Below, in pieces: positions 39,257 to 62,509 of a stretch of DNA of 64,000 nucleotides. The stretch lies in the sequence record MT446416.1, one strand, 5' to 3'. Within the stretch, counting starts at the first letter, position 1; every line of letters begins with the position of its first letter. The DNA is from Escherichia virus TH47. The notes beneath the pieces were generated by a model. That model saw only the letters and a list, made by a program, of their open reading frames with translations. It ran no database searches and was not told the origin of the DNA. Both the position numbers and the translations under genes were made by a program.

Positions 39257-41251
39257 TTAATATTTTTTTGTGTATTTTATATTACCAGAGTTGTAAATCT
39301 TATAATATCCCAATACATCACAGCAAATTTGTCTCTCAGTTAAGTTAATATCATGACCTTTCTTGACCAATTTATGTTTTTGACATTTCTGACGTGAAAT
39401 CCTCTCATGTGTTTGTGGGTCATAATAAAAATATCCGGGTTCTGTATAGCTATCAAACTCAAAGCCAAGAACTGTATAAAGATCACCACTACTCCAATCC
39501 ATATCCGCATATGTCAATAATGATTGTGGATTATATACTGTTTCAAAATATTTTAGTAATTTTGATGCACCACCAACAACTGTACCGGATGAACAGTATC
39601 TGATTAATTCATATTCATAGTTTTTATCAAACCTTGATTTACCAAAGGTCATAACTGCAACTAAATCACTTCCATAGTAAAGTCCAATGTGAATACTTGC
39701 TTGTGCAACACCTTGAATATGGTGTGATTTAGTAAACATATTACTTACTTGTTTGTCTATATTTCTAACAGTACATTTTCTAGCATAAATTCTATTTGAC
39801 ACTAGAAGTTTATTCTTTAAACGTTCCTTGATAATTTTATTTGTTAATGGGTTATCCCATTCATCTTCATAAATGTGAATAAGATTCACCCCATGTTTTA
39901 AACAATCCAATACCTTATCTTGATGTTTAGTGGAATTTACATTTTCATCATTATGCCAATACACACCATTAAATTCAATAGCTAGATTACGGTCTGGGAT
40001 ATACACATCCAACTCTTTAGGTTTCAGCACTGAACGGTCGTTTTCTATAATTTGCATATTTTGTATTAATGATTTTATATAATCAACTAAATCTTTCTCT
40101 TTCAATGAATGACCATTATTTTTCTGACACTTACATTTCACTTTATGATTTTTATACTTACTATAAAACAATTCATCACAATACTCACACCAAAATGGGT
40201 ATTCGTCTGTATTAACTTTCATCATTAGGTCGGTGTTTTCAAATAATGGAATATAGTTTTTATCAATATTTGCAACAATGATATTATATCTTTCGTCTAG
40301 ACGAGCAAGTGACATTTTCTCTTTATACTCATCAGTCTGTGAGTAGTGTTCTGAACCATATCTATTTTTTGTGGTTTCTTTCATTTTTTCAATGATAGAA
40401 TTATTTTGGGCTGGGTGTTTTACACCATATCGCTCCACATTGGTATTATGAACTTTTTCCTGAACACTCATATTGCTCATTGGGTAAAATGAATTATACT
40501 TCAACGTGTTGGTGTTTTTTATTTTATCTTGGACAATTTTATTTGATAGTGGATTGCCACCATATCGTTCAAGATTTGTTTTATTGATTTTTTCACGAAT
40601 CGTCGGTGATGATAAAGAATACTCAGCACCGTATCTTAATATATTTGTGTTTTTGGCTTTCTCTTTTACTTCATTTCTTTTGCTTTGGAATTCAACACCA
40701 TACTTTTTTAAATTTGTTGCTTTTACTTTATTGAATATTTCAGAGTTTTGGTTTGGATATTCACAACCATATCGCTCTATATTAGTTTGTTTGATTTTAT
40801 CTTTAGTTTCTGATGTTTGTAAATTAGATGAGACACCATAACGCTCAATGTTAGTTTTTTCTTTCTTTTGTTTTACTTCTTGTATTTGGGACACATTAGA
40901 TACACCATACATATCCATTAATGTTGATTTTGTTTTATTAGTTCGATTTTTATAATACATTTCATGGCATACATTACATGTATTTTTCTTATTAATCACA
41001 TAGTCATCACAAAATTTATAAAATCCTTTTTGGAAATTTTTGTATCTTGCTTTTTTTCCGCAATATGCAGTTGGAACGGTTGTTATATCATTCATGAACA
41101 TATATAGAATTTTATATATTTCGAAATCAGTTTTTGGTTCTATTCCAAAAGTAGAAAGGAGAACCCTCACACGAGAGTCCCCTTTGTATAAATGTACCCA
41201 TGAATTAATATGTTTTGACAACAAAAGTTTTTTTAATTCTTCATTGTTCAT
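39257..41251 (-). CDS. homing-endonuclease-like protein with ten ~23-aa RYG repeats and a Vsr-like nuclease domain
   Basis: Cys-rich N-terminus; ten ~23-aa R/K-Y-G/N repeats; C-terminal LAIEFNGVYWH motif typical of PD-(D/E)xK homing-endonuclease-like domains. Confidence 0.6.
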   Translation of the reverse strand: MNNEELKKLLLSKHINSWVHLYKGDSRVRVLLSTFGIEPKTDFEIYKILYMFMNDITTVPTAYCGKKARYKNFQKGFYKFCDDYVINKKNTCNVCHEMYYKNRTNKTKSTLMDMYGVSNVSQIQEVKQKKEKTNIERYGVSSNLQTSETKDKIKQTNIERYGCEYPNQNSEIFNKVKATNLKKYGVEFQSKRNEVKEKAKNTNILRYGAEYSLSSPTIREKINKTNLERYGGNPLSNKIVQDKIKNTNTLKYNSFYPMSNMSVQEKVHNTNVERYGVKHPAQNNSIIEKMKETTKNRYGSEHYSQTDEYKEKMSLARLDERYNIIVANIDKNYIPLFENTDLMMKVNTDEYPFWCEYCDELFYSKYKNHKVKCKCQKNNGHSLKEKDLVDYIKSLIQNMQIIENDRSVLKPKELDVYIPDRNLAIEFNGVYWHNDENVNSTKHQDKVLDCLKHGVNLIHIYEDEWDNPLTNKIIKERLKNKLLVSNRIYARKCTVRNIDKQVSNMFTKSHHIQGVAQASIHIGLYYGSDLVAVMTFGKSRFDKNYEYELIRYCSSGTVVGGASKLLKYFETVYNPQSLLTYADMDWSSGDLYTVLGFEFDSYTEPGYFYYDPQTHERISRQKCQKHKLVKKGHDINLTERQICCDVLGYYKIYNSGNIKYTKKY
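40277..40939 (-). repeat. in-frame ~69-bp tandem repeats encoding the RYG modules
   Basis: RYG/KYG/RYN recur every 22-24 residues (protein positions ~115-323). Confidence 0.6.
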
Positions 41252-41277
41252 ATAGTTCTCTTTTTAAATGTTTAAAT

Positions 41278-42069
41278 TTATCCGATAATCATTCCAAGTG
41301 GTTCCCCACCATCTTTATATCGCTTCAACTGTTCTTTTAGTTGTTCTTGTAATTGGATACCTTCATTTCTTAATGTATCACCATCCATTGAAAATGTCCC
41401 TTGCGGTCCAGGCAATGAAGCAAACTTAGCACGGTTACGACCAAGCATAATCATTGCTTCAGACAATGCCCAATCACGAAGCCACGGGTAACTTTGCTGA
41501 CGTTGGAATAACAATGGTTCTGGGATGTTATGATATACATGTAATAATACTTCTTCTGTACCACGAATATCACGATCAATAATAAGTTTCTTAGTCATTT
41601 GGTTGAATTGGAATATAATTTCACGTCCAAACATACGACCAACCAATTCTTGAAATTGAAAGCTGAAATCATATGTTGTTAGGTCATATCCACCTGCATT
41701 CCTAGCAGACGTCAATAGATATGTATTTGTGAATGCCAATGAGAATGGGTCTACGCTGTTACCTGACCCAGAACTTAAATAACCATTACCATAACGATAA
41801 ATCTTTTTAACAATTTCTACTTCTGTTGGTAGCATATATACCGATTGTGAATCATAAAATTTCATATTTAAAAATGCTTCTTCTTTAGAAGCAGAACTCC
41901 ACGCTCTGTAATTTGATACAGCATTATCAATTGCAATTTCTAATTGACCATCAGTAATTTCTACCTCAACTGCACCTGCTCCCAACATTTGAGTGATAAC
42001 ATCTTTCAGTTTTTCACGATGATCAAAATTAGGAGCATCTGGGTTTCCACCCATATAATTGTAAGACAT
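41278..42069 (-). CDS. hypothetical protein
   Basis: 263-aa ORF; its GAGGTG SD lies in the 3' arm of the upstream hairpin. Confidence 0.5.
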   Translation of the reverse strand: MSYNYMGGNPDAPNFDHREKLKDVITQMLGAGAVEVEITDGQLEIAIDNAVSNYRAWSSASKEEAFLNMKFYDSQSVYMLPTEVEIVKKIYRYGNGYLSSGSGNSVDPFSLAFTNTYLLTSARNAGGYDLTTYDFSFQFQELVGRMFGREIIFQFNQMTKKLIIDRDIRGTEEVLLHVYHNIPEPLLFQRQQSYPWLRDWALSEAMIMLGRNRAKFASLPGPQGTFSMDGDTLRNEGIQLQEQLKEQLKRYKDGGEPLGMIIG

Positions 42070-42075
42070 AAAAAA

Positions 42076-42117
42076 AGCACCTCATTAATGTTTATATATA
42101 CATTATTTAGAGGTGCT
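42076..42117 (-). promoter_or_regulatory. SD-sequestering hairpin with TAAATA late-like motif in its loop
   Basis: Stem agcacctc/gaggtgct; 3' arm contains the SD; loop carries TAAATA 34 nt upstream of ATG 42069. Confidence 0.45.
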
Positions 42118-42122
42118 AATAC

Positions 42123-42350
42123 TTATTTTGAATTATACAAGCAGTACAGGTATACCAACGGAGTAAAATGTTCTGAATCTATAGCATATATTAACTGTGT
42201 AACATATATTCCGTATAAATCTCGACTTTTATCTCGGTACATTAACAATGAATTATTAAAGTATGGGTCAACCCAGTACTTTATATTATTTAACATCAAT
42301 GTATTGTTTCTGTATCCTGATAATTTTAAGCATTTAGCCAACTTTTTCAC
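42123..42350 (-). CDS. possible small ORF (75 aa), uncertain
   Basis: GTG start, overlaps upstream gene by 17 nt, no clear SD. Confidence 0.25.
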   Translation of the reverse strand: MKKLAKCLKLSGYRNNTLMLNNIKYWVDPYFNNSLLMYRDKSRDLYGIYVTQLIYAIDSEHFTPLVYLYCLYNSK

Positions 42351-42711
42351 AATTACTTAGTAAGTGTGTGATTACATCGGCAGTGAATGGTCCTAGAACT
42401 AAAACTTCTTCTCCATTACCGAAGATACTCAATGGTACAGATTGTTGTCCTGCTAGATATTCGATTTGTTCTAATTCGAAAATGTCATCAGCAGCATAAA
42501 CAACCTGTTCCATTTCATTATCTTTAATCCATGACTGCCAATGTTCTTTAAACTGCTTCGCTTCGTATTCCAGCACATAGTTAGGTGATTCTGGATTGTA
42601 CTGATGTAGCATTGTCATACCAGCCATGACCAGTTCTTTTGGTGATGGAGTAGAATCTTTCAGTACTACGATAGCTTGGATAGTTTTAACTTTAACGTTT
42701 TGAGCAGCCAT
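42334..42711 (-). CDS. hypothetical protein
   Basis: 125-aa ORF with AGAGGT SD. Confidence 0.5.
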   Translation of the reverse strand: MAAQNVKVKTIQAIVVLKDSTPSPKELVMAGMTMLHQYNPESPNYVLEYEAKQFKEHWQSWIKDNEMEQVVYAADDIFELEQIEYLAGQQSVPLSIFGNGEEVLVLGPFTADVITHLLSNCEKVG

Positions 42712-42723
42712 TAGATACCTCTA

Positions 42724-43032
42724 TTATAGAATGATTTTGTTATCAGGAACAATCAGTGCTGGTTTTTCTTCGATAGCCTTGATTGCTTCAACATAAGCTT
42801 CAACTAGTGCAGGGTTTGCATCACTGATGCTGATGATGTTGGATTTATAAAAAATAACGCCTTTTTCAGAACTAATGAATTCTAGGTAATCACGTAGAAT
42901 GATTTCACCTTGTTCGTCAGTACCTAGCTGTGCTGGGTAGTTAACTACTACTGCTTCAGGTGCATCATTTTGTAGAATTGCTAGTACTGGGCCAACGCTG
43001 TTGATGTTTAGTAGTTTAACGGTCATAGTCAT
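42724..43032 (-). CDS. hypothetical protein
   Basis: Start placed at ATG 43032 rather than TTG 43041. Confidence 0.45.
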   Translation of the reverse strand: MTMTVKLLNINSVGPVLAILQNDAPEAVVVNYPAQLGTDEQGEIILRDYLEFISSEKGVIFYKSNIISISDANPALVEAYVEAIKAIEEKPALIVPDNKIIL

Positions 43033-43051
43033 TTTTGTCAAGTCCTTTTGT

Positions 43052-43528
43052 TTATTTTATAATGTATAAGTGTTTTTCTGCATTAACCAGTCTGTGGTCA
43101 ATGATTTCTTTGATAACGTTCCAGTTACCACCGCCTAAATCGGCTCCAATTTTCGGGAAGTGTACATGAACAGTGCGTTCAACGTTACATAAGTAATTGA
43201 GTTGTTTGAAAACATCATCGATTGCATCATAACTCACATACTTAGAACCGTCATTACCATAGTACTTTTGGGTAATGCAGTTTGCGATAAGCAAATCATC
43301 ACTTATAGAAGAATATGAAATTTGTCCTGTTCTTAGAAATCCCATTTCCTTTTCATATGCTTTATAATCATCATATGCCATCGGGTAACGATTTCTTAGT
43401 TCTTTTGCAAAACCCGAACCCATCTTACCCTGTGCATTACAACCATGAGCGATTATATGCAACGCGGTTTGATCATCAGTAACAGTGTTGAACAATTCAA
43501 ACAAATTACCTAGGTGTTCATGTATCAT
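43052..43528 (-). CDS. macro-domain-like protein (ADP-ribose binding/processing fold)
   Basis: HGCNAQGKMGSGFA and FPKIGADLGGGNW resemble the two glycine-rich macro-domain motifs; GGAGAA SD. Confidence 0.55.
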   Translation of the reverse strand: MIHEHLGNLFELFNTVTDDQTALHIIAHGCNAQGKMGSGFAKELRNRYPMAYDDYKAYEKEMGFLRTGQISYSSISDDLLIANCITQKYYGNDGSKYVSYDAIDDVFKQLNYLCNVERTVHVHFPKIGADLGGGNWNVIKEIIDHRLVNAEKHLYIIK

Positions 43529-43537
43529 TATATTCTC

Positions 43538-43567
43538 CGAAAAGAAAGGACTCTGTAATCAGAGTCC
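43538..43567 (-). terminator. rho-independent terminator/attenuator
   Basis: ggactct/agagtcc stem followed by tttcttttc on minus strand, immediately before the macro gene SD. Confidence 0.5.
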
Positions 43568-43579
43568 TTAATTTATATT

Positions 43580-43837
43580 TTATTCTTCTTCACCGAATCG
43601 AATTTTTTTCAATTCTTTTCGTTGTTTGCGAGCAATGGTACTTTTGTGAAGTCTATTACCACGTTTTGTGTCTTTCGTGATGTACCATGAATCTTCTGGT
43701 GCATTATAATCACAATAACCATCTTCTGTAATCGTCCCTAAGAAAGCAGACTTTTTAGGAATGGATGTTTGAGCTTTAGCAGCGAATTGGCCTTTTGCTA
43801 ATTGTTCACGAAAACTGAGCATAATAGTATCTCCCAA
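43580..43837 (-). CDS. hypothetical basic protein
   Basis: 85-aa ORF, Lys/Arg-rich C-terminus. Confidence 0.4.
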   Translation of the reverse strand: MGDTIMLSFREQLAKGQFAAKAQTSIPKKSAFLGTITEDGYCDYNAPEDSWYITKDTKRGNRLHKSTIARKQRKELKKIRFGEEE

Positions 43838-43867
43838 ATTGTTACGAAGAACTTGTGTTCTTCATTA

Positions 43868-44110
43868 TTATTTAGGGTTGCTCGAAACCTCTACTGAAGC
43901 GATGAATGCCAAAATATCATCTTTACTGAAAGCTTCAATAATATAAGCAACCGCTTTATCGTACTGTTCTTTCTTAGTAGTGTATTCTTTCATTTTGTGA
44001 ATTTTACGTTGTGCTTTAACTTTTGCAGCTTCCATATCAGGCATTTTAAATTCAACACCCAATGTGTCAGCTAAATGTTTTGCACGAGATGATACTTTAT
44101 CAATATTCAT
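43868..44110 (-). CDS. hypothetical protein
   Basis: 80-aa ORF. Confidence 0.4.
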   Translation of the reverse strand: MNIDKVSSRAKHLADTLGVEFKMPDMEAAKVKAQRKIHKMKEYTTKKEQYDKAVAYIIEAFSKDDILAFIASVEVSSNPK

Positions 44111-44867: not shown

Positions 44868-45983
44868 TTAGAACATTTGCTTGATTGCTTCAATACGCAA
44901 TTCAGCAACAAAATCACGAATCTCTGATGTTTGGAGTTCACCATCTTTCACTAACTGCTGAATATCAGGTAATTCAACATCAGTATAACGATCATAAACT
45001 TTAATAATCAAATCTTCAAGATCAGAATCAATTTCTTTGTTCAAAATGAAGTTTTCCAGTACTTTGTAAAGGAAATCTTCGCCACCATTGTTTTTGATAT
45101 TCATCTCCAGTAAGATTTGTCCCATTTCAACGGGGGTCTTCTTACGGAAGGTTTTAATATCTTCACGGAAACGCTTGATGTAATTACTAAACTTCACGTA
45201 CTTAACTGGAACCTTAATAGAACCATTAAGTACTGAATCATTATTTACTTCTTCATTTTCAAGAAGTACTGTCCATAAGAAATATGGTTTATATTCTTCT
45301 GTACAATTTGCAGCGATAGCATCAATTAATTCCAGACGTTTCTTGGTAACTGGAACTGTAGTAAATGCCTTTTCGTAATAACCAAATTGTACCAGAGTTT
45401 TGATAAACTTGGAAGGGTTTTCTTCAGAAAGTGCTTTTTCGAATTCAACAAAAACACGATCTGGAACTAGATGGTCTAGTTCACCAGTACTAACCATATC
45501 TTTACACATTGTCATAGTATCATCATGGATTGTAAAGTCTGAGTAACGTGTAGCGAAACGTGCCAAACGTAGTACACGCAATGGATCTTCTTTAAAGTGT
45601 TCTGATACATGACGAAGTACTTTGTTCTTGATATCAGCTTTCCCGCCATAAGGGTCGATGTGAATCTGGAGTACTGGATCATACGCTATGCTATTTACCG
45701 TAATATCCCTTCTGTATAGATCTTGCTCTAGTGTCACGCCTTTAGTATTCACTTCGAAGCCACCGTAGCCAGTACCAGTTTTACGTTCGGTACGTGCCAA
45801 TGCGTGCTCATTACCCTCTGGACTTAGATACACTGGAAAATCCTTACCTACTTGCTTATAGCCAATACTTTGTAAGTACTTAATATCGGATTCGGTAGCA
45901 CCGACAATGACATAATCTTTGTCTTTTGCACGAATACCCATTAAACGGTCCCTCACATAGCCGCCCACCAAATACTTTTTCAT
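44868..45983 (-). CDS. cca: tRNA nucleotidyltransferase (CCA-adding enzyme), head domain only
   Basis: YLVGGYVRD...KDKDYV, EHALARTERK, GYGGF, TLEQDLYRRDITVNS, EDPLRVLRLARF match E. coli Cca as recalled; no HD domain. Confidence 0.85.
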   Translation of the reverse strand: MKKYLVGGYVRDRLMGIRAKDKDYVIVGATESDIKYLQSIGYKQVGKDFPVYLSPEGNEHALARTERKTGTGYGGFEVNTKGVTLEQDLYRRDITVNSIAYDPVLQIHIDPYGGKADIKNKVLRHVSEHFKEDPLRVLRLARFATRYSDFTIHDDTMTMCKDMVSTGELDHLVPDRVFVEFEKALSEENPSKFIKTLVQFGYYEKAFTTVPVTKKRLELIDAIAANCTEEYKPYFLWTVLLENEEVNNDSVLNGSIKVPVKYVKFSNYIKRFREDIKTFRKKTPVEMGQILLEMNIKNNGGEDFLYKVLENFILNKEIDSDLEDLIIKVYDRYTDVELPDIQQLVKDGELQTSEIRDFVAELRIEAIKQMF

Positions 45984-47047
45984 AATATACCTTCCTCTGA
46001 AAGATGTTTTTTTAATACAGTTAAGTGGTCTTCATAATATGTTACACGTATTAATTTAATAAAATTCTTTTCACAATATTGTGTCTTTATAGTATCGTTA
46101 TCCTTGATGTTTTTCAATTTATCTTCTCCACCCCAATGAGGTGATTTCTCAAAATGTTGTTTACCATCATACTCAATACAAATATCATAATCAACCAAAT
46201 AAAAATCAAATCTTAATAACATTTTATTTTTACAGTCACTAAATGTTTGTTCTTTATTAAATTTTATACCATTTTCAATTAAAAAACGTGTTATTTCTCT
46301 ACTAGCTCTGGATTCAGTATGTTCAGATGAGCATATTGGGCAACCTTGTTTTTTATTTTTTGCTATATGAAAATTTGGAATGATATAAAAAGAATTATTA
46401 TGTTTTTTACAAATTATTTCAACATGAGTGCTACTATTAATGTAGATGACTTTTGAATAGTCATATACATTACCATGAATTTCTTTTGCTCGTTCAACAA
46501 ATTCAGCGGTGGTGAATGCGTGTGCTAATCTGGTTTTTTCAAATCGACAAATAGAGCAACCCTGACCACTTTGTATATTACTAATTTCCATTTCATCAAC
46601 GTGACCACATTTTAAGCATTTATAAGTTAATTTGGTTCTTTTATCTTTAATTATTGGTTGTTCTAAAAGTAATTCACATTCACCAGTCATTAGACTTTTT
46701 GAAGTCTTATAAAGATAATATCTATAATTTGCATTGTCATATTTCCCAATGATATATTTCATACCTTTCGTTTTTATATCATTTATATTTCTTTTTGTAT
46801 ATATAATACCATCTTTTTCAACAACAGTTCTTGTAAAACTAGATTTCCATTCATCACTTGATGTTATAGCAAATCCTAAAATATTATATCCTTTTTCTAT
46901 TATTTCTTCAAAATGTTCTTTAGGTGTTTTTGATGTTTTAATTAATTTTGGTGATAAATCTTCGGGACGCATCCATTCGAAACGCATACCTAATTCTTCA
47001 TGGAAATATACCTTCTCGTTATTTTCATTAAAATAAAATTTATACAT
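45980..47047 (-). CDS. homing-endonuclease-like protein (zinc ribbons plus Vsr-like nuclease motif)
   Basis: CLKCGH...CSIC and CPIC zinc-ribbon pairs; RFDFYLVDYDICIEYDGKQHF motif shared with the 39257-41251 protein. Confidence 0.55.
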   Translation of the reverse strand: MYKFYFNENNEKVYFHEELGMRFEWMRPEDLSPKLIKTSKTPKEHFEEIIEKGYNILGFAITSSDEWKSSFTRTVVEKDGIIYTKRNINDIKTKGMKYIIGKYDNANYRYYLYKTSKSLMTGECELLLEQPIIKDKRTKLTYKCLKCGHVDEMEISNIQSGQGCSICRFEKTRLAHAFTTAEFVERAKEIHGNVYDYSKVIYINSSTHVEIICKKHNNSFYIIPNFHIAKNKKQGCPICSSEHTESRASREITRFLIENGIKFNKEQTFSDCKNKMLLRFDFYLVDYDICIEYDGKQHFEKSPHWGGEDKLKNIKDNDTIKTQYCEKNFIKLIRVTYYEDHLTVLKKHLSEEGIL

Positions 47048-48981: not shown

Positions 48982-49005
48982 AATTTACCTACCTTTTTTT
49001 TAGTT

Positions 49006-49932
49006 TTAAAGATTACTAACTAACAATTCTGCACGGTTTCCTACTTGACGATACCATAGAGAATTCTTAATTTCTTTTTTGAACTTGTTATCATTTTGAT
49101 TATCAACGCTTTTCCATAATTTATTGAAAGTATTTAACTTATCAACTCCTAATGTAAATGCCATCTCAAATAAAATTCGTTGTTGTTCAGCCGTAAGGTT
49201 TGTTGCATTTCTTTTCTTCAATAATAAAACTAAATCATTATTAGTTCGTTCCATGTCAGACAATAAAAGTTTATGTGCTTGTGACTTCGTAATACCATTA
49301 CGATACTTACTTGCATCTGATTCTTTCTTTCCAAGATAATGTCCGTACCCAATAGTGAAGTTACCTTTTATATCACGATACGGATAAAATTTAGAATTTC
49401 GATATGGAACTCCAACTTTCCCACCAAGTAAACGTCGTTTGTTCTTGGACTGAAATTCAATAGAACCTTCAGCTTCTTTGATGTGATTGACAATTTCTGG
49501 ATCTTTATAATCAAACAGTACAGTCACATCTGGTAACAATACGTGCTTCAAATCCTCTTTTGTTGGGATAAAGATACCCTGAGAAGTATGAAGAGTTGCA
49601 TTTAAGTTGATGTTCTTCAACAAAATGACATAATCTTCAATCTGTACATTTTTAGGTTTAAATTTCTGTGCAATAGAATAATAACTATCACCAGGTTGAA
49701 CCGTATAATGTTTCTCGCTGCTTGGAACTGCTTTTGGTACTGATACCTTTGGTAGTTCCTGCTTTTGAATTTGAGTAAACTGTGGTTTTAAATTATGCAC
49801 CTGACTTTCGTCTAATGATGGTACATGATCACTTTGAGAAAAACCATAAAATCCAATAGCAGCGAATAGGGCTGATGAAACTAATACGCCTACGGCAATT
49901 TTAGTTTTCAGTGCTTTTTTCGCTTTTTTCAA
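49006..49932 (-). CDS. endolysin: N-terminal signal-anchor, LysM, T4-lysozyme-like (GH24) domain
   Basis: TM KIAVGVLVSSALFAAIGFYGF; LysM YTVQPGDSYYSIAQKF; catalytic EAEGS...YRDIKGNFTIGYGH; start likely TTG 49932 after AAGGAGG. Confidence 0.75.
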   Translation of the reverse strand: MKKAKKALKTKIAVGVLVSSALFAAIGFYGFSQSDHVPSLDESQVHNLKPQFTQIQKQELPKVSVPKAVPSSEKHYTVQPGDSYYSIAQKFKPKNVQIEDYVILLKNINLNATLHTSQGIFIPTKEDLKHVLLPDVTVLFDYKDPEIVNHIKEAEGSIEFQSKNKRRLLGGKVGVPYRNSKFYPYRDIKGNFTIGYGHYLGKKESDASKYRNGITKSQAHKLLLSDMERTNNDLVLLLKKRNATNLTAEQQRILFEMAFTLGVDKLNTFNKLWKSVDNQNDNKFKKEIKNSLWYRQVGNRAELLVSNL

Positions 49933-55399: not shown

Positions 55400-55843
55400 T
55401 TATTGTAAAACTTTAAGTTTGTAAAGCATTCCTTCACAAAAACTCATAATGTCTTCTAGTGTGTTAGTACTGCCATAGTCTTCAGCCTCTTCAAGCATAG
55501 CATGAATGGCTTTACATTGACTAACATATTCTTCAAGAATTGGTACACAATCCTCGATAGGGGTAAAACGATAACTGTTACCAGTACCTACCTGTAATGC
55601 CCCGCGAGTGTTCATAATACCCTCTACAAATGCATCAACGTACTCAGGTAACTCTTTGTATAGTTCATCCAATTGTAGATGCTTAGTGTAGAAATGGCTC
55701 TGTAAATGCCAGTTGTGAGCAGCAGCACTTAAAAATAAACTATTCTCAATAAATGTAAGTAGTACTTCATCATAAGAACTATCTTCTTCAGTATCTCCAA
55801 TAAAGTCCATAACGTGGCGAAGTGTTGATATATCTTCATTCAT
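55400..55843 (-). CDS. hypothetical protein
   Basis: Start at ATG 55843 (GAGGATG SD) rather than 55876. Confidence 0.4.
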   Translation of the reverse strand: MNEDISTLRHVMDFIGDTEEDSSYDEVLLTFIENSLFLSAAAHNWHLQSHFYTKHLQLDELYKELPEYVDAFVEGIMNTRGALQVGTGNSYRFTPIEDCVPILEEYVSQCKAIHAMLEEAEDYGSTNTLEDIMSFCEGMLYKLKVLQ

Positions 55844-55872
55844 ATAATTACATCCTCTATGTGTATTCATAT

Positions 55873-56514
55873 TCATATTTTATTTATAGTAATGGTGATA
55901 TTAAAACTTTCTATATCATTCTTTAATATATCAACTCGTTTTCGTAAACCATCTATAACTTCTGGTATTACATCATTTTTATACATCTCTATTAACTCTT
56001 CTATATATTTTTTCTTTTCTATCTGCCACGCACGATGTGCATCTTCTGGAGTTTCATAAACACCAATGTATGTTGTTTTATTATATATTGTTATTTTAGC
56101 ACAATAAGGTTTGGTATATTCACTCACCATGTCTTTTGGACGTTTTCTGTATATCACTCCCATTCCATATGGTGATGCATTTGCAGCACTGTCTAGTATA
56201 CAGTAATTCAATTCTTTGGGAACAAATGCACATGTTTCAGGAGAATAGATTTTCTTACTCCCACCAATAATATCTTTATCTAATTGATATCCTTCTTTAT
56301 AATGTGATTTGTACCAAATTTTAAATTTTGAATAATACTTCCACTCATCACATACAACAGTTCCAATATAAGAACCCTTAGCCTTATCGGAATAGCATCG
56401 GTCTAACATACGTTGCCATGCACAATATATTGCTCGATCTGGATTTGTTATACTAGCATCACCTTTTATATCACAGATGCCATGACCATAAAACTTCTTC
56501 ATTAATTTATCCAT
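55873..56514 (-). CDS. putative DNA-binding protein with AP2-like domain
   Basis: W..M..RCY...Y.G..VC.EW module and C-terminal YIGVYETPEDAHRAWQ AP2-like motif; no nuclease motif seen. Confidence 0.45.
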   Translation of the reverse strand: MDKLMKKFYGHGICDIKGDASITNPDRAIYCAWQRMLDRCYSDKAKGSYIGTVVCDEWKYYSKFKIWYKSHYKEGYQLDKDIIGGSKKIYSPETCAFVPKELNYCILDSAANASPYGMGVIYRKRPKDMVSEYTKPYCAKITIYNKTTYIGVYETPEDAHRAWQIEKKKYIEELIEMYKNDVIPEVIDGLRKRVDILKNDIESFNITITINKI

Positions 56515-56524
56515 ATTTTTGTAA

Positions 56525-60232: not shown

Positions 60233-62509
60233 TTATTTTTTACTGTACCATTGCATTTCACGGATATCTAATAGTACCTTCGTAGCCAACTTTATGTTTG
60301 GTCGCTTCGGTAGATGGGTTTTATGATACGCCACATTTCGGATGTAGTCAACCTTTTCGTTGAAATAATCCATAACTTCTTGATACAACCACTTCCCGTT
60401 ACGAATGTCCATCAACATAGCAGCATCTGGTCGGTGAACTTGGATGATGCCAGTTTCAAGTGCTTCCTCGGCTGTATTCAGCAGCCTGATTGTATGCATA
60501 GCATGTTTGCAATTTCCATGTAATGCGGTTTTTCCATTTCTACGAGTAATGAGTGTTCCGTTGGGAACAGAAAAACACACAGTTCTGTAATTAGTAACTG
60601 GAATTTTTTCAAGATTTTGTTTCATGTTCATTTTTTCGGTTTTGGGTTTCATATTGATATGAATTTGATATATATCAACACTACCAAAATTGGTTTCGTT
60701 TGTGTATGGTCCCCATTTTGATGTTTCATAACCACATAGCAATGCTAGTTTTTGAACATCATCAGCTAATAATGAATTGGTAGTATAATATACAAATGTA
60801 TCATTGTCATTAACTAAATTTCGTTTTGTTCCATCACCTTGTAACAAACCTTTCAGAAGGAAATCCATTTTACGTTTTGTTAAATCAAATACCCAATTTG
60901 GAATTCGTTTATTATATGAACCATGTCCACAATCATTATATAATGCTTCAGCTACTTCACTTGGGAATGTATATCTTGATTCGTCATTAGCTTGATAATC
61001 TTTCTTTTCTATAATGTATTCATTAAACATTAATTGACCAGATTTTTTGTATTTTGATAAAGCACAACGCATACCTTGACTAGTTTTTGACTGGGAAATA
61101 TATAAAGATTTTACTTTACCATCCCTGAAATTTATGCACCCATCTGAAATAAACCATCCCATGAGTTGAAGATAAACTTTGATATCCATGTAGTCAATTG
61201 GACTTTTTTTATCTTTGTGTTCTTTAGTTATTGGGGATATTGTATTCAAAATTTTATATGTTTCTTTTAATTGTGCTGCTTCTACAAATTTCCAATCAGA
61301 CATATCTTTTTGTTGATTTCGTGCATAATCCTTAACATACATTCGGTGGTTAGCAGTCACTAAAGTATCTTGGTGATGACCAGTGAAATGGTATAGATTG
61401 CCATTATATAAATTATCAAAACGTTCAGTGTATTTCTGATATTCAACTTTGTGATTTTTGTCAAAAGTAGCTAATAGATCGTTTTCAGTAATATCATCAA
61501 ATAACTTCCAACCATCTTTAGTTAAGAATTCAGTATCAAAACTATAACAGTCATAACCGTGGTGTGATTCAAGAATAGCACGTTTGGCATTACGGTTCTG
61601 CTTCCATTTGTGATAACTCTTACGGTTCTCACTATTTTCTTTGTATTCCTTTTCATTGAATTTTACAATGAGTTCAGGACGAACTTTTAATTCTTCCGAA
61701 GTACGTTCTTTATTGAAGTAACGTAGTGAACCATCAGCATTCACTGTACTTTCATTCGGGTTGATAATTACCCCAAAGATGTTTTCACCGTAATGGATTA
61801 GTTCATATCCAGAATTGTAATTCAATAAATTGAAATCACGATCTAATACTTTGTCAGTACTATAATTATGTACTAAACGTACAAAATGATATTGTTTCAA
61901 TGCTTGTGTTGAAACTAATTGTAATGAAGTATCACGCATGTATTTTTCGAAATCAATTTTTGTAGCATTGAATGGGTGAAGATTGGATTTATTCAAACGG
62001 TCAACCAAATACTGCGGGAATGTATCATACATCCATGAAAGTACTTCGTCAACTGGATGTTCTTCTAAAATTTCATTTAGTTTACGTTCAGCAATTCGTT
62101 CCTTATCGAGCCATCCGTGGTGATTCGACATACGCTTAACCTGATTGTATGCATAACCACTGTATGAATGAGCAATCTTTGAACTCAATAATTGCTGATT
62201 GAATGAGCGTAGATAGTCATAGATTTCAGTACTTTCTACGATGTGTTCCGGTTTAACCCATAGTGATTCAAGAATGTTTGGGTTAGCTTCTGTATAAAGA
62301 CTTAAGTACTGATTGACTTCATAAAATTTAGTATCTTCTTCAGAAGGATCTGAAACTTCCTTAACATTAAAAAAAGGAGTTAGGATAAATTCTTTGTTTG
62401 CAAGGAAGATACCACGATAATCGGTATCACTTTCTGGTGTGCTTGTGCCATACGCCTGTGAACCCGCTAAGTGTTTAACAATTGTTTGTTCTAGAAAATT
62501 GTTTTTCAT
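60233..62509 (-). CDS. Pol-beta-superfamily nucleotidyltransferase-like protein interrupted by an intein
   Basis: N-terminal GS-x9-SDTD nucleotidyltransferase signature; 346-aa insertion with intein and LAGLIDADG motifs; ATGA coupling with upstream gene. Confidence 0.65.
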   Translation of the reverse strand: MKNNFLEQTIVKHLAGSQAYGTSTPESDTDYRGIFLANKEFILTPFFNVKEVSDPSEEDTKFYEVNQYLSLYTEANPNILESLWVKPEHIVESTEIYDYLRSFNQQLLSSKIAHSYSGYAYNQVKRMSNHHGWLDKERIAERKLNEILEEHPVDEVLSWMYDTFPQYLVDRLNKSNLHPFNATKIDFEKYMRDTSLQLVSTQALKQYHFVRLVHNYSTDKVLDRDFNLLNYNSGYELIHYGENIFGVIINPNESTVNADGSLRYFNKERTSEELKVRPELIVKFNEKEYKENSENRKSYHKWKQNRNAKRAILESHHGYDCYSFDTEFLTKDGWKLFDDITENDLLATFDKNHKVEYQKYTERFDNLYNGNLYHFTGHHQDTLVTANHRMYVKDYARNQQKDMSDWKFVEAAQLKETYKILNTISPITKEHKDKKSPIDYMDIKVYLQLMGWFISDGCINFRDGKVKSLYISQSKTSQGMRCALSKYKKSGQLMFNEYIIEKKDYQANDESRYTFPSEVAEALYNDCGHGSYNKRIPNWVFDLTKRKMDFLLKGLLQGDGTKRNLVNDNDTFVYYTTNSLLADDVQKLALLCGYETSKWGPYTNETNFGSVDIYQIHINMKPKTEKMNMKQNLEKIPVTNYRTVCFSVPNGTLITRRNGKTALHGNCKHAMHTIRLLNTAEEALETGIIQVHRPDAAMLMDIRNGKWLYQEVMDYFNEKVDYIRNVAYHKTHLPKRPNIKLATKVLLDIREMQWYSKK
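60512..61549 (-). mobile_element. intein with LAGLIDADG homing endonuclease (346 aa)
   Basis: Starts CYSFDTEFLT (block A), block B TANH, LAGLIDADG motifs LMGWFISDG and LLQGDG, ends HGN before Cys +1; codons checked against DNA. Confidence 0.7.

Follow-up and report, generated by a model that had tools for sequence, protein, structure and literature searches.

A gene in the 64,000-nucleotide stretch of Escherichia virus TH47 analysed here (MT446416.1; the window) most probably encodes an active, free-standing Hef-like homing endonuclease that recently homed into its present site with co-conversion of the flanking DNA. The window belongs to an Asteriusvirus (121Q/PBECO4-like) jumbo coliphage, and the gene, a complete open reading frame (ORF), lies on the minus strand and has exactly the coordinates and the length of 664 amino acids (aa) given in the original prediction, which was made from the letters of the window alone (Table 1). 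The comparative evidence favours homing as the reason for the location of the gene, and speaks to that location rather than to the role of the GNAT-fold domain at the C-terminus of its product. The earlier interpretation of a selfish inserted gene of the homing endonuclease type is largely upheld, but it credited the gene with a terminator that is not its own, missed the Mom-like C-terminal domain and concerned a family that was already known.

The DNA of the gene is present in only two of the 49 phage records matching the surrounding 9 kb, UE-S1 (96% identity) and ph0011 (93%), and the remaining records align across the empty site; nearly all Asteriusvirus relatives thus have no such gene at this position. 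UE-S1 and ph0011 serve here as gene-bearing comparison phages, and vB_Ec-M-J and BF17 as gene-less ones. Homology to vB_Ec-M-J ends at position 39255 and restarts at 41277 (blastn breakpoints at L001 4766 and L001 4773, respectively), delimiting an intergenic insertion that consists of the ORF and 26 additional nucleotides (nt). The insert separates the head-tail adaptor gene, which has its stop codon at 41278, from the intrinsic terminator of that same gene, and what had been described as a gene wedged between conserved genes is a precise insertion of 2021 bp. The GC content of the gene is 29.5%, compared with 36% for the window.

Outside the insertion and its flanks, the window is nearly identical to vB_Ec-M-J, whereas on either side of the inserted gene it carries the UE-S1-type allele (Table 1). 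The switch can be located at the level of single-nucleotide polymorphisms, passing from the vB_Ec-M-J type to the UE-S1 type between 38377 and 38386 and back again between 42397 and 42403. The patch so defined, of about 4 kb in total, is centred on the insertion, with flanks of 870 and 1121 bp, and constitutes the longest stretch below 90% identity to vB_Ec-M-J over positions 17-64 kb of the window, a span of 47 kb that is otherwise 97-100% identical. Throughout the patch, the gene-less phages BF17 and vB_Ec-M-J match each other at 99% identity; theirs is thus the ancestral allele of this backbone clade, and that of the window is derived. The converse arrangement, with vB_Ec-M-J as the recombinant, was considered and rejected, given that BF17 shares its allele (99%) and that nine gene-less relatives show the same pattern of 93-95% overall identity.

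The right-flank allele is common to all three gene-bearing phages (95-98% identical), and the left flank of ph0011 differs (82.6% identity to the window). Since ph0011 shares the right flank only, separate events with different tract lengths are indicated; the gene has been exchanged at least twice, and the adaptor-gene side is more tightly linked to it. The overall pattern is the one expected if a genome lacking the gene suffers a double-strand break that is then mended from a gene-bearing genome, and the break is therefore confined to the patch, within which the differences fixed between gene-bearing and gene-less alleles are spread throughout, their density pointing to no cleavage site. Sporadic presence and flank co-conversion together support the selfish insertion that had been proposed.

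The leader that precedes the ATG of the inserted gene, starting after the adaptor-gene stop codon, contains a ribosome-binding-like site, AAAGAGAA, and a promoter scan yielded no more sites than shuffled sequence, making no separate promoter evident. The terminator directly 3′ of the gene had been taken for its own. The same hairpin is found, in one copy, directly after the adaptor gene in the gene-less phages vB_Ec-M-J, 121Q and Turkey5, and it is thus the ancestral adaptor-gene terminator. With no Rfam family in positions 38000-42600 and an intergenic insert, a group I intron, and an intron- or intein-borne origin generally, was rejected. Independently of this, an imperfect 17-bp direct repeat brackets the insertion (39239-39255 and 41249-41265; CATATAGGAGTCTTTTT and CATATAGTTCTCTTTTT, 14/17 identical). 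The 5′ half of the ancestral terminator makes up the downstream copy; the upstream copy, which overlaps the ATG and the ribosome-binding site, should not terminate, because the other half of the stem is missing. The repeat could be a target duplication, or the vestige of an earlier insertion downstream of a terminator (compare the arrangement in Klebsiella phage Muenster, below).

Table 1. Features of the locus in window coordinates, with percent identity to the window for three comparison phages
Feature	Coordinates	Strand	Basis	vB_Ec-M-J	UE-S1	ph0011
Left backbone	35000-38377			99.7	84.1	83.9
Left co-converted flank: 3′ half of dNMP kinase gene and 89-aa ORF; UE-S1-type allele	38386..39255	.		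80.1	97.9	82.6
Intrinsic terminator directly 3′ of the stop codon	39229..39255	-	11-bp stem, then T run			
Insertion, 2021 bp, relative to gene-less relatives; replaces ~6 bp of the empty site	39256..41276	.	blastn, junction alignment	absent	95.9	93.1
Hef-like homing endonuclease ORF, 664 aa, stop codon included	39257..41251	-	complete ORF			
C-terminal Mom-like GNAT-fold domain, aa 484-664	39260..39802	-	Foldseek, profile alignment			
Vsr-like / EDxHD PD-(D/E)xK nuclease domain, aa 383-483	39803..40105	-	phmmer, Foldseek, homologues			
Second zinc ribbon, aa 350-380 (C355, C358, C373, C375)	40112..40204	-	cysteines and model			
Array of ten 23-aa helical repeats, aa 103-331, Pfam DUF7487	40259..40945	-	motif spacing, hidden Markov model, structure model			
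First zinc ribbon, aa 56-100 (C64, C81, C92, C95)	40952..41086	-	cysteines and model			
N-terminal four-helix domain, aa 1-55	41087..41251	-	AlphaFold2 pLDDT ~90			
26-nt leader, adaptor-gene stop codon to ATG	41252..41277	-	sequence read directly			
Right co-converted flank: head-tail adaptor gene and start of ORF 42334-42711	41277..42397	.		84.7	96.6	95.4
Right backbone	42403-44000			99.2	86.2	85.4

The 664-aa protein matches PHROG 3339 (homing endonuclease) with E=4.7e-163; it has no match in NCBIfam, matches no family of the PADLOC defence models at E<=0.01, and has no paralogue encoded within the 64-kb window. An AlphaFold2 model computed with 50 homologues as input reaches a mean predicted local distance difference test score (pLDDT) of 89 and lays out, in order, a four-helix domain, a beta-hairpin zinc ribbon, ten helix-turn units, a second zinc ribbon, an alpha/beta nuclease and an alpha/beta C-terminal domain. 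In this model the N-terminal domain, for which Pfam gives no match over aa 1-55, has helices at aa 3-12, 15-24, 26-35 and 42-53. The first zinc ribbon forms beta-hairpins at aa 67-72 and 76-81; C64 and C95 are found in 50/50 homologues and C81 in 49/50, and its knuckle departs from the CxxC consensus of the family. The second ribbon, with beta-strands at aa 350-355 and 360-365, follows a CxxC...CxC pattern 3′ of the repeat array, its cysteines being kept in 44-47 of 50 homologues. Both clusters had been recognised from the translation, as a Cys-rich N-terminus (C64, C81, C92 and C95) preceding the array and as a second zinc knuckle. No NUMOD or helix-turn-helix (HTH) family is detected in the protein by Pfam, the region N-terminal to the nuclease being made up of the helical domain, the zinc ribbon and the DUF7487 repeats. 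The ORF is intact in three phages (the window, UE-S1 and ph0011), and the ratio of nonsynonymous to synonymous substitution rates (dN/dS) among the three copies is ~0.10 overall, being higher in the repeats (0.13-0.15) than in the nuclease and Mom-like domains (0.07-0.08), which indicates that the gene is maintained and not decaying.

Assignment of the nuclease domain rests on several concordant lines of evidence. Its candidate catalytic residues are D415, E426, N428, H433 and D445, with D415 and E426 present in 50/50 homologues and H433 in 49/50; the placement of D445 as the last Asp of the E, D, H, D motif is alignment-dependent, the family consensus at that position being Asn. The segment LAIEFNGVYWH, singled out originally as a Vsr-like motif, does align with the catalytic core of I-Bth0305I, the EDxHD prototype (PDB 3R3P), in which it reads LAIEVNGVYW(H). 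A phmmer comparison places aa 392-467 on 3r3p_A with E=0.0045, Foldseek matches the domain to Vsr (1cw0_A) with E=2.3e-3, and homologues carry PF18741. Residues D196, E206, N208 and H213 of I-Bth0305I, whose roles have been described (PMC3239194), align with D415, E426, N428 and H433, and the residues mutated in its crystal construct with D415 and H433. The EDxHD family takes in Hef-type enzymes (Taylor et al., PMC3239194). Unlike the window gene, I-Bth0305I is a group I intron-encoded protein of 266 aa that binds DNA via two NUMOD/HTH motifs and has no Mom-like domain, whereas the window gene is free-standing, its product presumably binds DNA by means of zinc ribbons and DUF7487 units, and a GNAT domain follows the nuclease. 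With Vsr (PDB 1CW0) the domain shares the PD-(D/E)xK variant fold and the positions of the catalytic Asp and His (PMC3239194), but Vsr is a single-domain, mismatch-specific nicking repair enzyme that is not mobile and lacks repeat and GNAT domains.

The repeat array is defined by the motif [RKM]-Y-[GN], which occurs at residues 114, 137, 160, 183, 206, 229, 251, 274, 297 and 321, with successive spacings of 23, 23, 23, 23, 23, 22, 23, 23 and 24. Over residues 101-330, identity at lag 23 amounts to 0.333, against a maximum over all lags that averaged 0.117 (standard deviation 0.009) among 2000 shuffled sequences and was above 0.170 in none of them. Ten in-frame repeats had been predicted, and a hidden Markov model (HMM) of the repeat recovers nine clear R/K-Y-G units (E<=3e-6), but the tenth is degenerate (E=0.89). 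The units share on average 34% of their amino acids and 49% of their nucleotides, and in the DNA no 69-bp tandem repeat is detected by Tandem Repeats Finder. The units being too diverged for that program, the periodicity is shown at the protein level, and their divergence together with the absence of a repeat detectable in the DNA indicates that the array is old and has undergone no recent duplication. The unit consensus, derived from 446 units, is [IV]KEKIKxTNLE[RK]YGVENPxQ[SN], in which K4, T8, Y13, G14 and Q20 are near-fixed and positions 3, 5, 7 and 17-19 variable; each unit is modelled as a 15-residue helix and a short turn. Copy number ranges from 5 to 14 among 50 full-length homologues, with a mode of 9-10, and many Hef-like proteins have 0-2 units.

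DUF7487, a Pfam domain of unknown function, accounts for the repeats (E=4e-38), which match no known non-DNA-binding domain, leaving in place the earlier suggestion of a DNA-recognition array. A fold comparison of the repeat gave no match among solved structures, and a literature search under DUF7487 or PF24308 found nothing on it; BFVD matches extend to zinc-ribbon nucleases of giant eukaryotic viruses. The array is basic (isoelectric point 9.6, net charge +15) and recurs in 101 phage records, in genes almost always annotated as endonucleases, including a Vibrio phage Va1 gene in which it is fused to a TnsA-like nuclease without a Mom domain. Charge, modularity and context make DNA binding by the array a reasonable inference, and we regard it as somewhat more likely than not that the array is the main DNA-binding module of the protein. 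By analogy of function only, the DUF7487 module can be likened to NUMODs and TAL effectors, in that it is portable, basic and variable in copy number, is found on more than one nuclease type, and alternates conserved scaffold positions with variable ones. When the window protein is compared with its orthologue from Muenster, 6/9 corresponding units agree at variable positions 5, 18 and 19, which hints weakly that these positions may hold repeat-specific information.

A separate observation concerns the Pfam model itself, which comprises 220 positions. The window protein matches positions 1-118 only, and in the Va1 protein (L011 1375-2271, 298 aa) the model spans several repeats and then enters the N-terminal domain of the TnsA-like nuclease; as currently defined, DUF7487 thus mixes the repeat with part of a nuclease domain.

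The domain at aa 484-664, overlooked in the original prediction, changes the view of what the protein may do. Its top Foldseek match is Mu Mom (8bv8, E=3.4e-7), generic GNAT acetyltransferases coming after it (next GNAT at 2.4e-4), and a Mom protein in BFVD matches at E=4e-8. Mu Mom, which carries out tRNA-dependent adenine N6 modification (PDB 8BV8), is accordingly the best structural match, at a sequence identity of 17%. The Pfam Mom family PF25680 remains below threshold in this region (E=0.002, 18.3 bits vs a gathering cut-off of 27.1), though it is present in several homologues, and a profile of the domain compared with PDB sequences found nothing, Mom included, so the link to Mom is visible by fold comparison only. 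Searched by itself, the C-terminal domain yields 16,396 cluster representatives at E<=1e-3, and the best 150 almost invariably carry it at their C-terminus. The domain is also the part most similar to the Muenster orthologue (64.6% identity, vs 57% for the nuclease and 46.5% for the repeats).

Residues were paired with those of Mom by a profile alignment of low hhalign probability (4%), yet one consistent with the fold match. In this pairing Mom R111 corresponds to R551 and Mom Y159 to Y592, each present in 50/50 homologues, and Mom D149 to D583, which is Asp in 37/50. Mom R151 falls on D585; the window protein has M584/D585 and no Arg here, homologues having Arg at 584 in 30/50 and at 585 in 19/50. 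Counterparts of Mom S124, H58 and Y59, which with R111, D149, R151 and Y159 are counted as essential Mom residues, are uncertain. R111, a residue shared by Mom homologues though not by GNATs at large, is presumed to recognise the adenine substrate (as R101 in the numbering of PMC7261163); Mom activity requires R111, S124, D149 and R151, and Mu Mom is a tight dimer (PMC13219725). Unlike the window protein, Mu Mom stands alone, with no nuclease fusion, lacks the Gly-Gly loop and possesses R151. That loop, G560-G561 in the window protein, is kept in the family and resembles the classical coenzyme A-binding motif.

From these elements a course of events can be proposed. Transcription of the adaptor gene would probably run on into the gene, whose own ribosome-binding site would serve for its translation. 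Its product would bind a long site in the gene-less allele through the zinc ribbons and the ten-unit basic DUF7487 array, and the Vsr-like domain, whose residues D415, E426, N428 and H433 are intact, would cut the DNA. Repair from a gene-bearing co-infecting genome would then copy the gene together with ~0.9 kb of left and ~1.1 kb of right flank, the outcome seen in the window. The break would lie within 38386-42397, more likely on the adaptor-gene side, because all three gene-bearing phages share that allele. For the Mom-like domain, our best guess is that it helps to engage DNA, either by handling adenine or by dimerising two nicking domains for a double-strand break; site-directed adenine modification by this domain is less likely. 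A more far-reaching proposal, which we consider a long shot, is that the DUF7487 array represents an unrecognised class of modular DNA-reading repeat and that the Mom-like domain sets a site-specific, protective adenine modification on the element's own genome. Each 23-aa unit may in that case contact a short DNA step, with positions 5, 7 and 17-19 setting specificity, and Hef-like enzymes would, if all this were true, be homing endonucleases with built-in chemistry-based immunity.

The family to which the window gene belongs is known, widespread and biochemically almost untouched, and is not new. Using tblastn, relatives were found in 438 phage records, many of them annotated as Hef-like homing endonucleases (E down to ~2e-56, 30-44% identity), and the core common to them is aa ~363-664, comprising the zinc ribbon, the nuclease and the Mom-like domain. 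Other annotations include putative nuclease/acetyltransferase protein, as well as F-LimIII and F-LimX in Dickeya phage LIMEstone1, whose Hef-like genes have been described as free-standing homing endonucleases (PMC3296691). Relatives occur at 10-12 places per genome in Campylobacter phages and, in a search with the repeat domain, at up to 18 in Lak megaphages. Hef and Hef-like enzymes of T4-like, ViI-like, Campylobacter and jumbo phages resemble the window gene in being free-standing, intergenic, sporadic and multi-copy and in sharing the core; the window protein differs from many of them in its full complement of repeats and its extra N-terminal helical domain. U5 hef cleaves nrdB (Edgell review, PMC2988022), and the link of the window protein to U5 Hef rests on annotation and on PMC3239194. 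The same fusion architecture occurs in Mom-restriction-fold nuclease fusions of jumbo phages, which have been read as restriction-modification-like modules (Iyer et al. 2021, PMC7824862). One of the momylating enzymes of that study, a PA5oct protein, is the second-best BFVD match to the window model, but the repeat array is not discussed there, and the restriction-modification reading differs from the homing favoured here by comparative evidence.

Genomes of the sister genus Alcyoneusvirus hold an orthologue that is 54% identical and has ten repeats (Muenster, L010 3965-5968; RaK2, L015 2168-4171). In both of these inspected genomes the gene order is connector gene, orthologue and deoxynucleoside monophosphate (dNMP) kinase gene, that is, the same locus, and four further Klebsiella records give equivalent repeat-domain matches. 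The Alcyoneusvirus locus is devoid of the small 89-aa ORF, and the terminator of the Muenster locus is situated upstream of the orthologue. It would seem that the lineage is resident in Alcyoneusvirus and sporadic in Asteriusvirus.

Several observations weigh against homing as a full account of the gene. The experimental support of the family comes from U5 Hef, and cleavage by the window protein is a prediction. A homing endonuclease needs no GNAT domain, yet no other part of the protein is as well conserved as this one, suggesting that a simple homing picture is incomplete. A rival reading is a single-chain conflict module akin to restriction-modification, in which the Mom-like domain would acylate the phage's own adenines and the nuclease would attack unmodified DNA of the host or of a co-infecting phage, warfare between genomes, rather than self-copying, being its main role. 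This function has been predicted for jumbo-phage Mom domains fused to restriction-fold nucleases (PMC7824862), and it draws support from the low dN/dS (0.07-0.08) of the Mom-like domain, the best conserved of the protein, from its great abundance (16,396 cluster representatives) and from retention of the Mom-specific arginine as R551 (50/50), along with Y592 (50/50) and D583 (37/50). U5 Hef was reportedly found by Sandegren and colleagues in 2005 to cut gene-bearing as well as gene-less DNA in vitro, which, if correct, would leave room for protection based on modification. A genome-wide protection system should, however, be retained across the genus, and the gene occupies the site in 3 of ~50 Asteriusviruses, inside a co-converted patch. 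Relatives with up to 12-21 copies per genome and differing N-terminal modules are better suited to site-specific selfish elements; M584/D585 stand where Mom has its essential R151, the domain falls short of the Pfam Mom threshold (18.3 vs 27.1 bits), and no PADLOC match is obtained. We consider such a module unlikely as the main explanation, while noting that it and homing are not mutually exclusive.

Three further points are to be set against homing. Phage genomes are mosaic, and the patch could have come from ordinary recombination that carried the gene along as a passenger; another divergent patch of the window, at 45.5-49.5 kb, likewise encloses an inserted nuclease-like gene; and both inspected Alcyoneusvirus genomes have an orthologue at the same locus, where it may have a role useful to the phage. 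If the gene was such a passenger, the 4-kb segment would have arrived by general homologous recombination between co-infecting Asteriusviruses, the nuclease being uninvolved and perhaps domesticated or regulatory; other, smaller stretches divergent from vB_Ec-M-J do exist in the window, and the Alcyoneusvirus orthologues could be resident genes with a host-useful role. Yet the insertion occupies the middle of the patch, between flanks of similar length, the patch is the largest below 90% in 47 kb, the only other strong patch also surrounds an endonuclease-like insertion, the catalytic residues are intact under purifying selection, and the multi-copy, sporadic and intergenic distribution of the family is typical of homing genes, all of which renders a mere passenger quite improbable. 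Free-standing homing genes often degenerate after fixation, and the degenerate tenth repeat and the atypical first zinc knuckle might be taken as signs that the gene is a remnant, decaying or inactive, and has lost the ability to cut DNA. A full-length ORF in three phages with dN/dS ~0.10 in all domains, the presence of every family-invariant residue and the 96-98% identity of the patch to UE-S1, which points to recent activity, make that outcome highly improbable. Recent homing by an active enzyme remains, on balance, the explanation we prefer.

As a gene call, the result is ordinary, given that jumbo and T4-like phages are rich in free-standing homing endonucleases and that the Hef-like label is already applied to this family. 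Taken together, the window, vB_Ec-M-J and UE-S1 nonetheless constitute an unusually clean natural record of homing, in which a 2-kb gene and ~2 kb of co-converted flanks within a backbone that is 99-100% identical provide a testable donor/recipient pair, with the cleavage site contained within 4 kb. The family is very large (~16,000 C-terminal-domain cluster representatives), and two of its three main modules, the DUF7487 repeat and the Mom-like GNAT domain, are uncharacterised. One architecture has received two published readings, as homing endonuclease and as restriction-modification-like Mom fusion, and this locus allows them to be compared in cultivable E. coli phages.

Further inserted genes were observed in the window. 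A 355-aa ORF on the minus strand (45980-47047; GC 26.5%) is absent from vB_Ec-M-J, in which 45985-47041 has no counterpart. It combines a treble-clef zinc finger (DUF4379) with matches to PHROG 559 and 9084 (homing endonuclease) and a C-terminal nuclease-like motif, IEYDGKQHF, and its flanks have diverged as well, positions 49001-49500 being 75.8% identical to vB_Ec-M-J; it is probably a second free-standing homing endonuclease with a co-conversion patch of its own. Also absent from vB_Ec-M-J (no counterpart to 55820-56520) is a 213-aa ORF on the minus strand (55873-56514; GC 30.8%), which has no Pfam match and aligns with the C-terminal half only of PHROG 953, an HNH endonuclease (positions 194-402 of 420). 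This ORF may be what is left of an HNH homing endonuclease, either truncated or reduced to DNA binding. Finally, the minus-strand ORF at 60233-62509, encoding a 758-aa RlaP-like nucleotidyltransferase, contains an in-frame insertion of ~1.04 kb relative to vB_Ec-M-J (~60512-61547). With a LAGLIDADG_3 match, a start near CYSFDTEF, an end near HGN/C and a GC content of 30%, the insertion looks like an intein with a LAGLIDADG homing endonuclease.

Downstream of the inserted gene, just upstream of the 89-aa ORF, positions 39190-39215 hold the motif TTAATATTATCATTATATCAC (minus strand GTGATATAATGATAATATTAA, containing TATAAT). It is conserved in the window, UE-S1, vB_Ec-M-J and 121Q, Turkey5 keeping only its 3′ part, CATTATATCAC, and it may be a conserved phage promoter serving the 89-aa ORF and the dNMP kinase gene.

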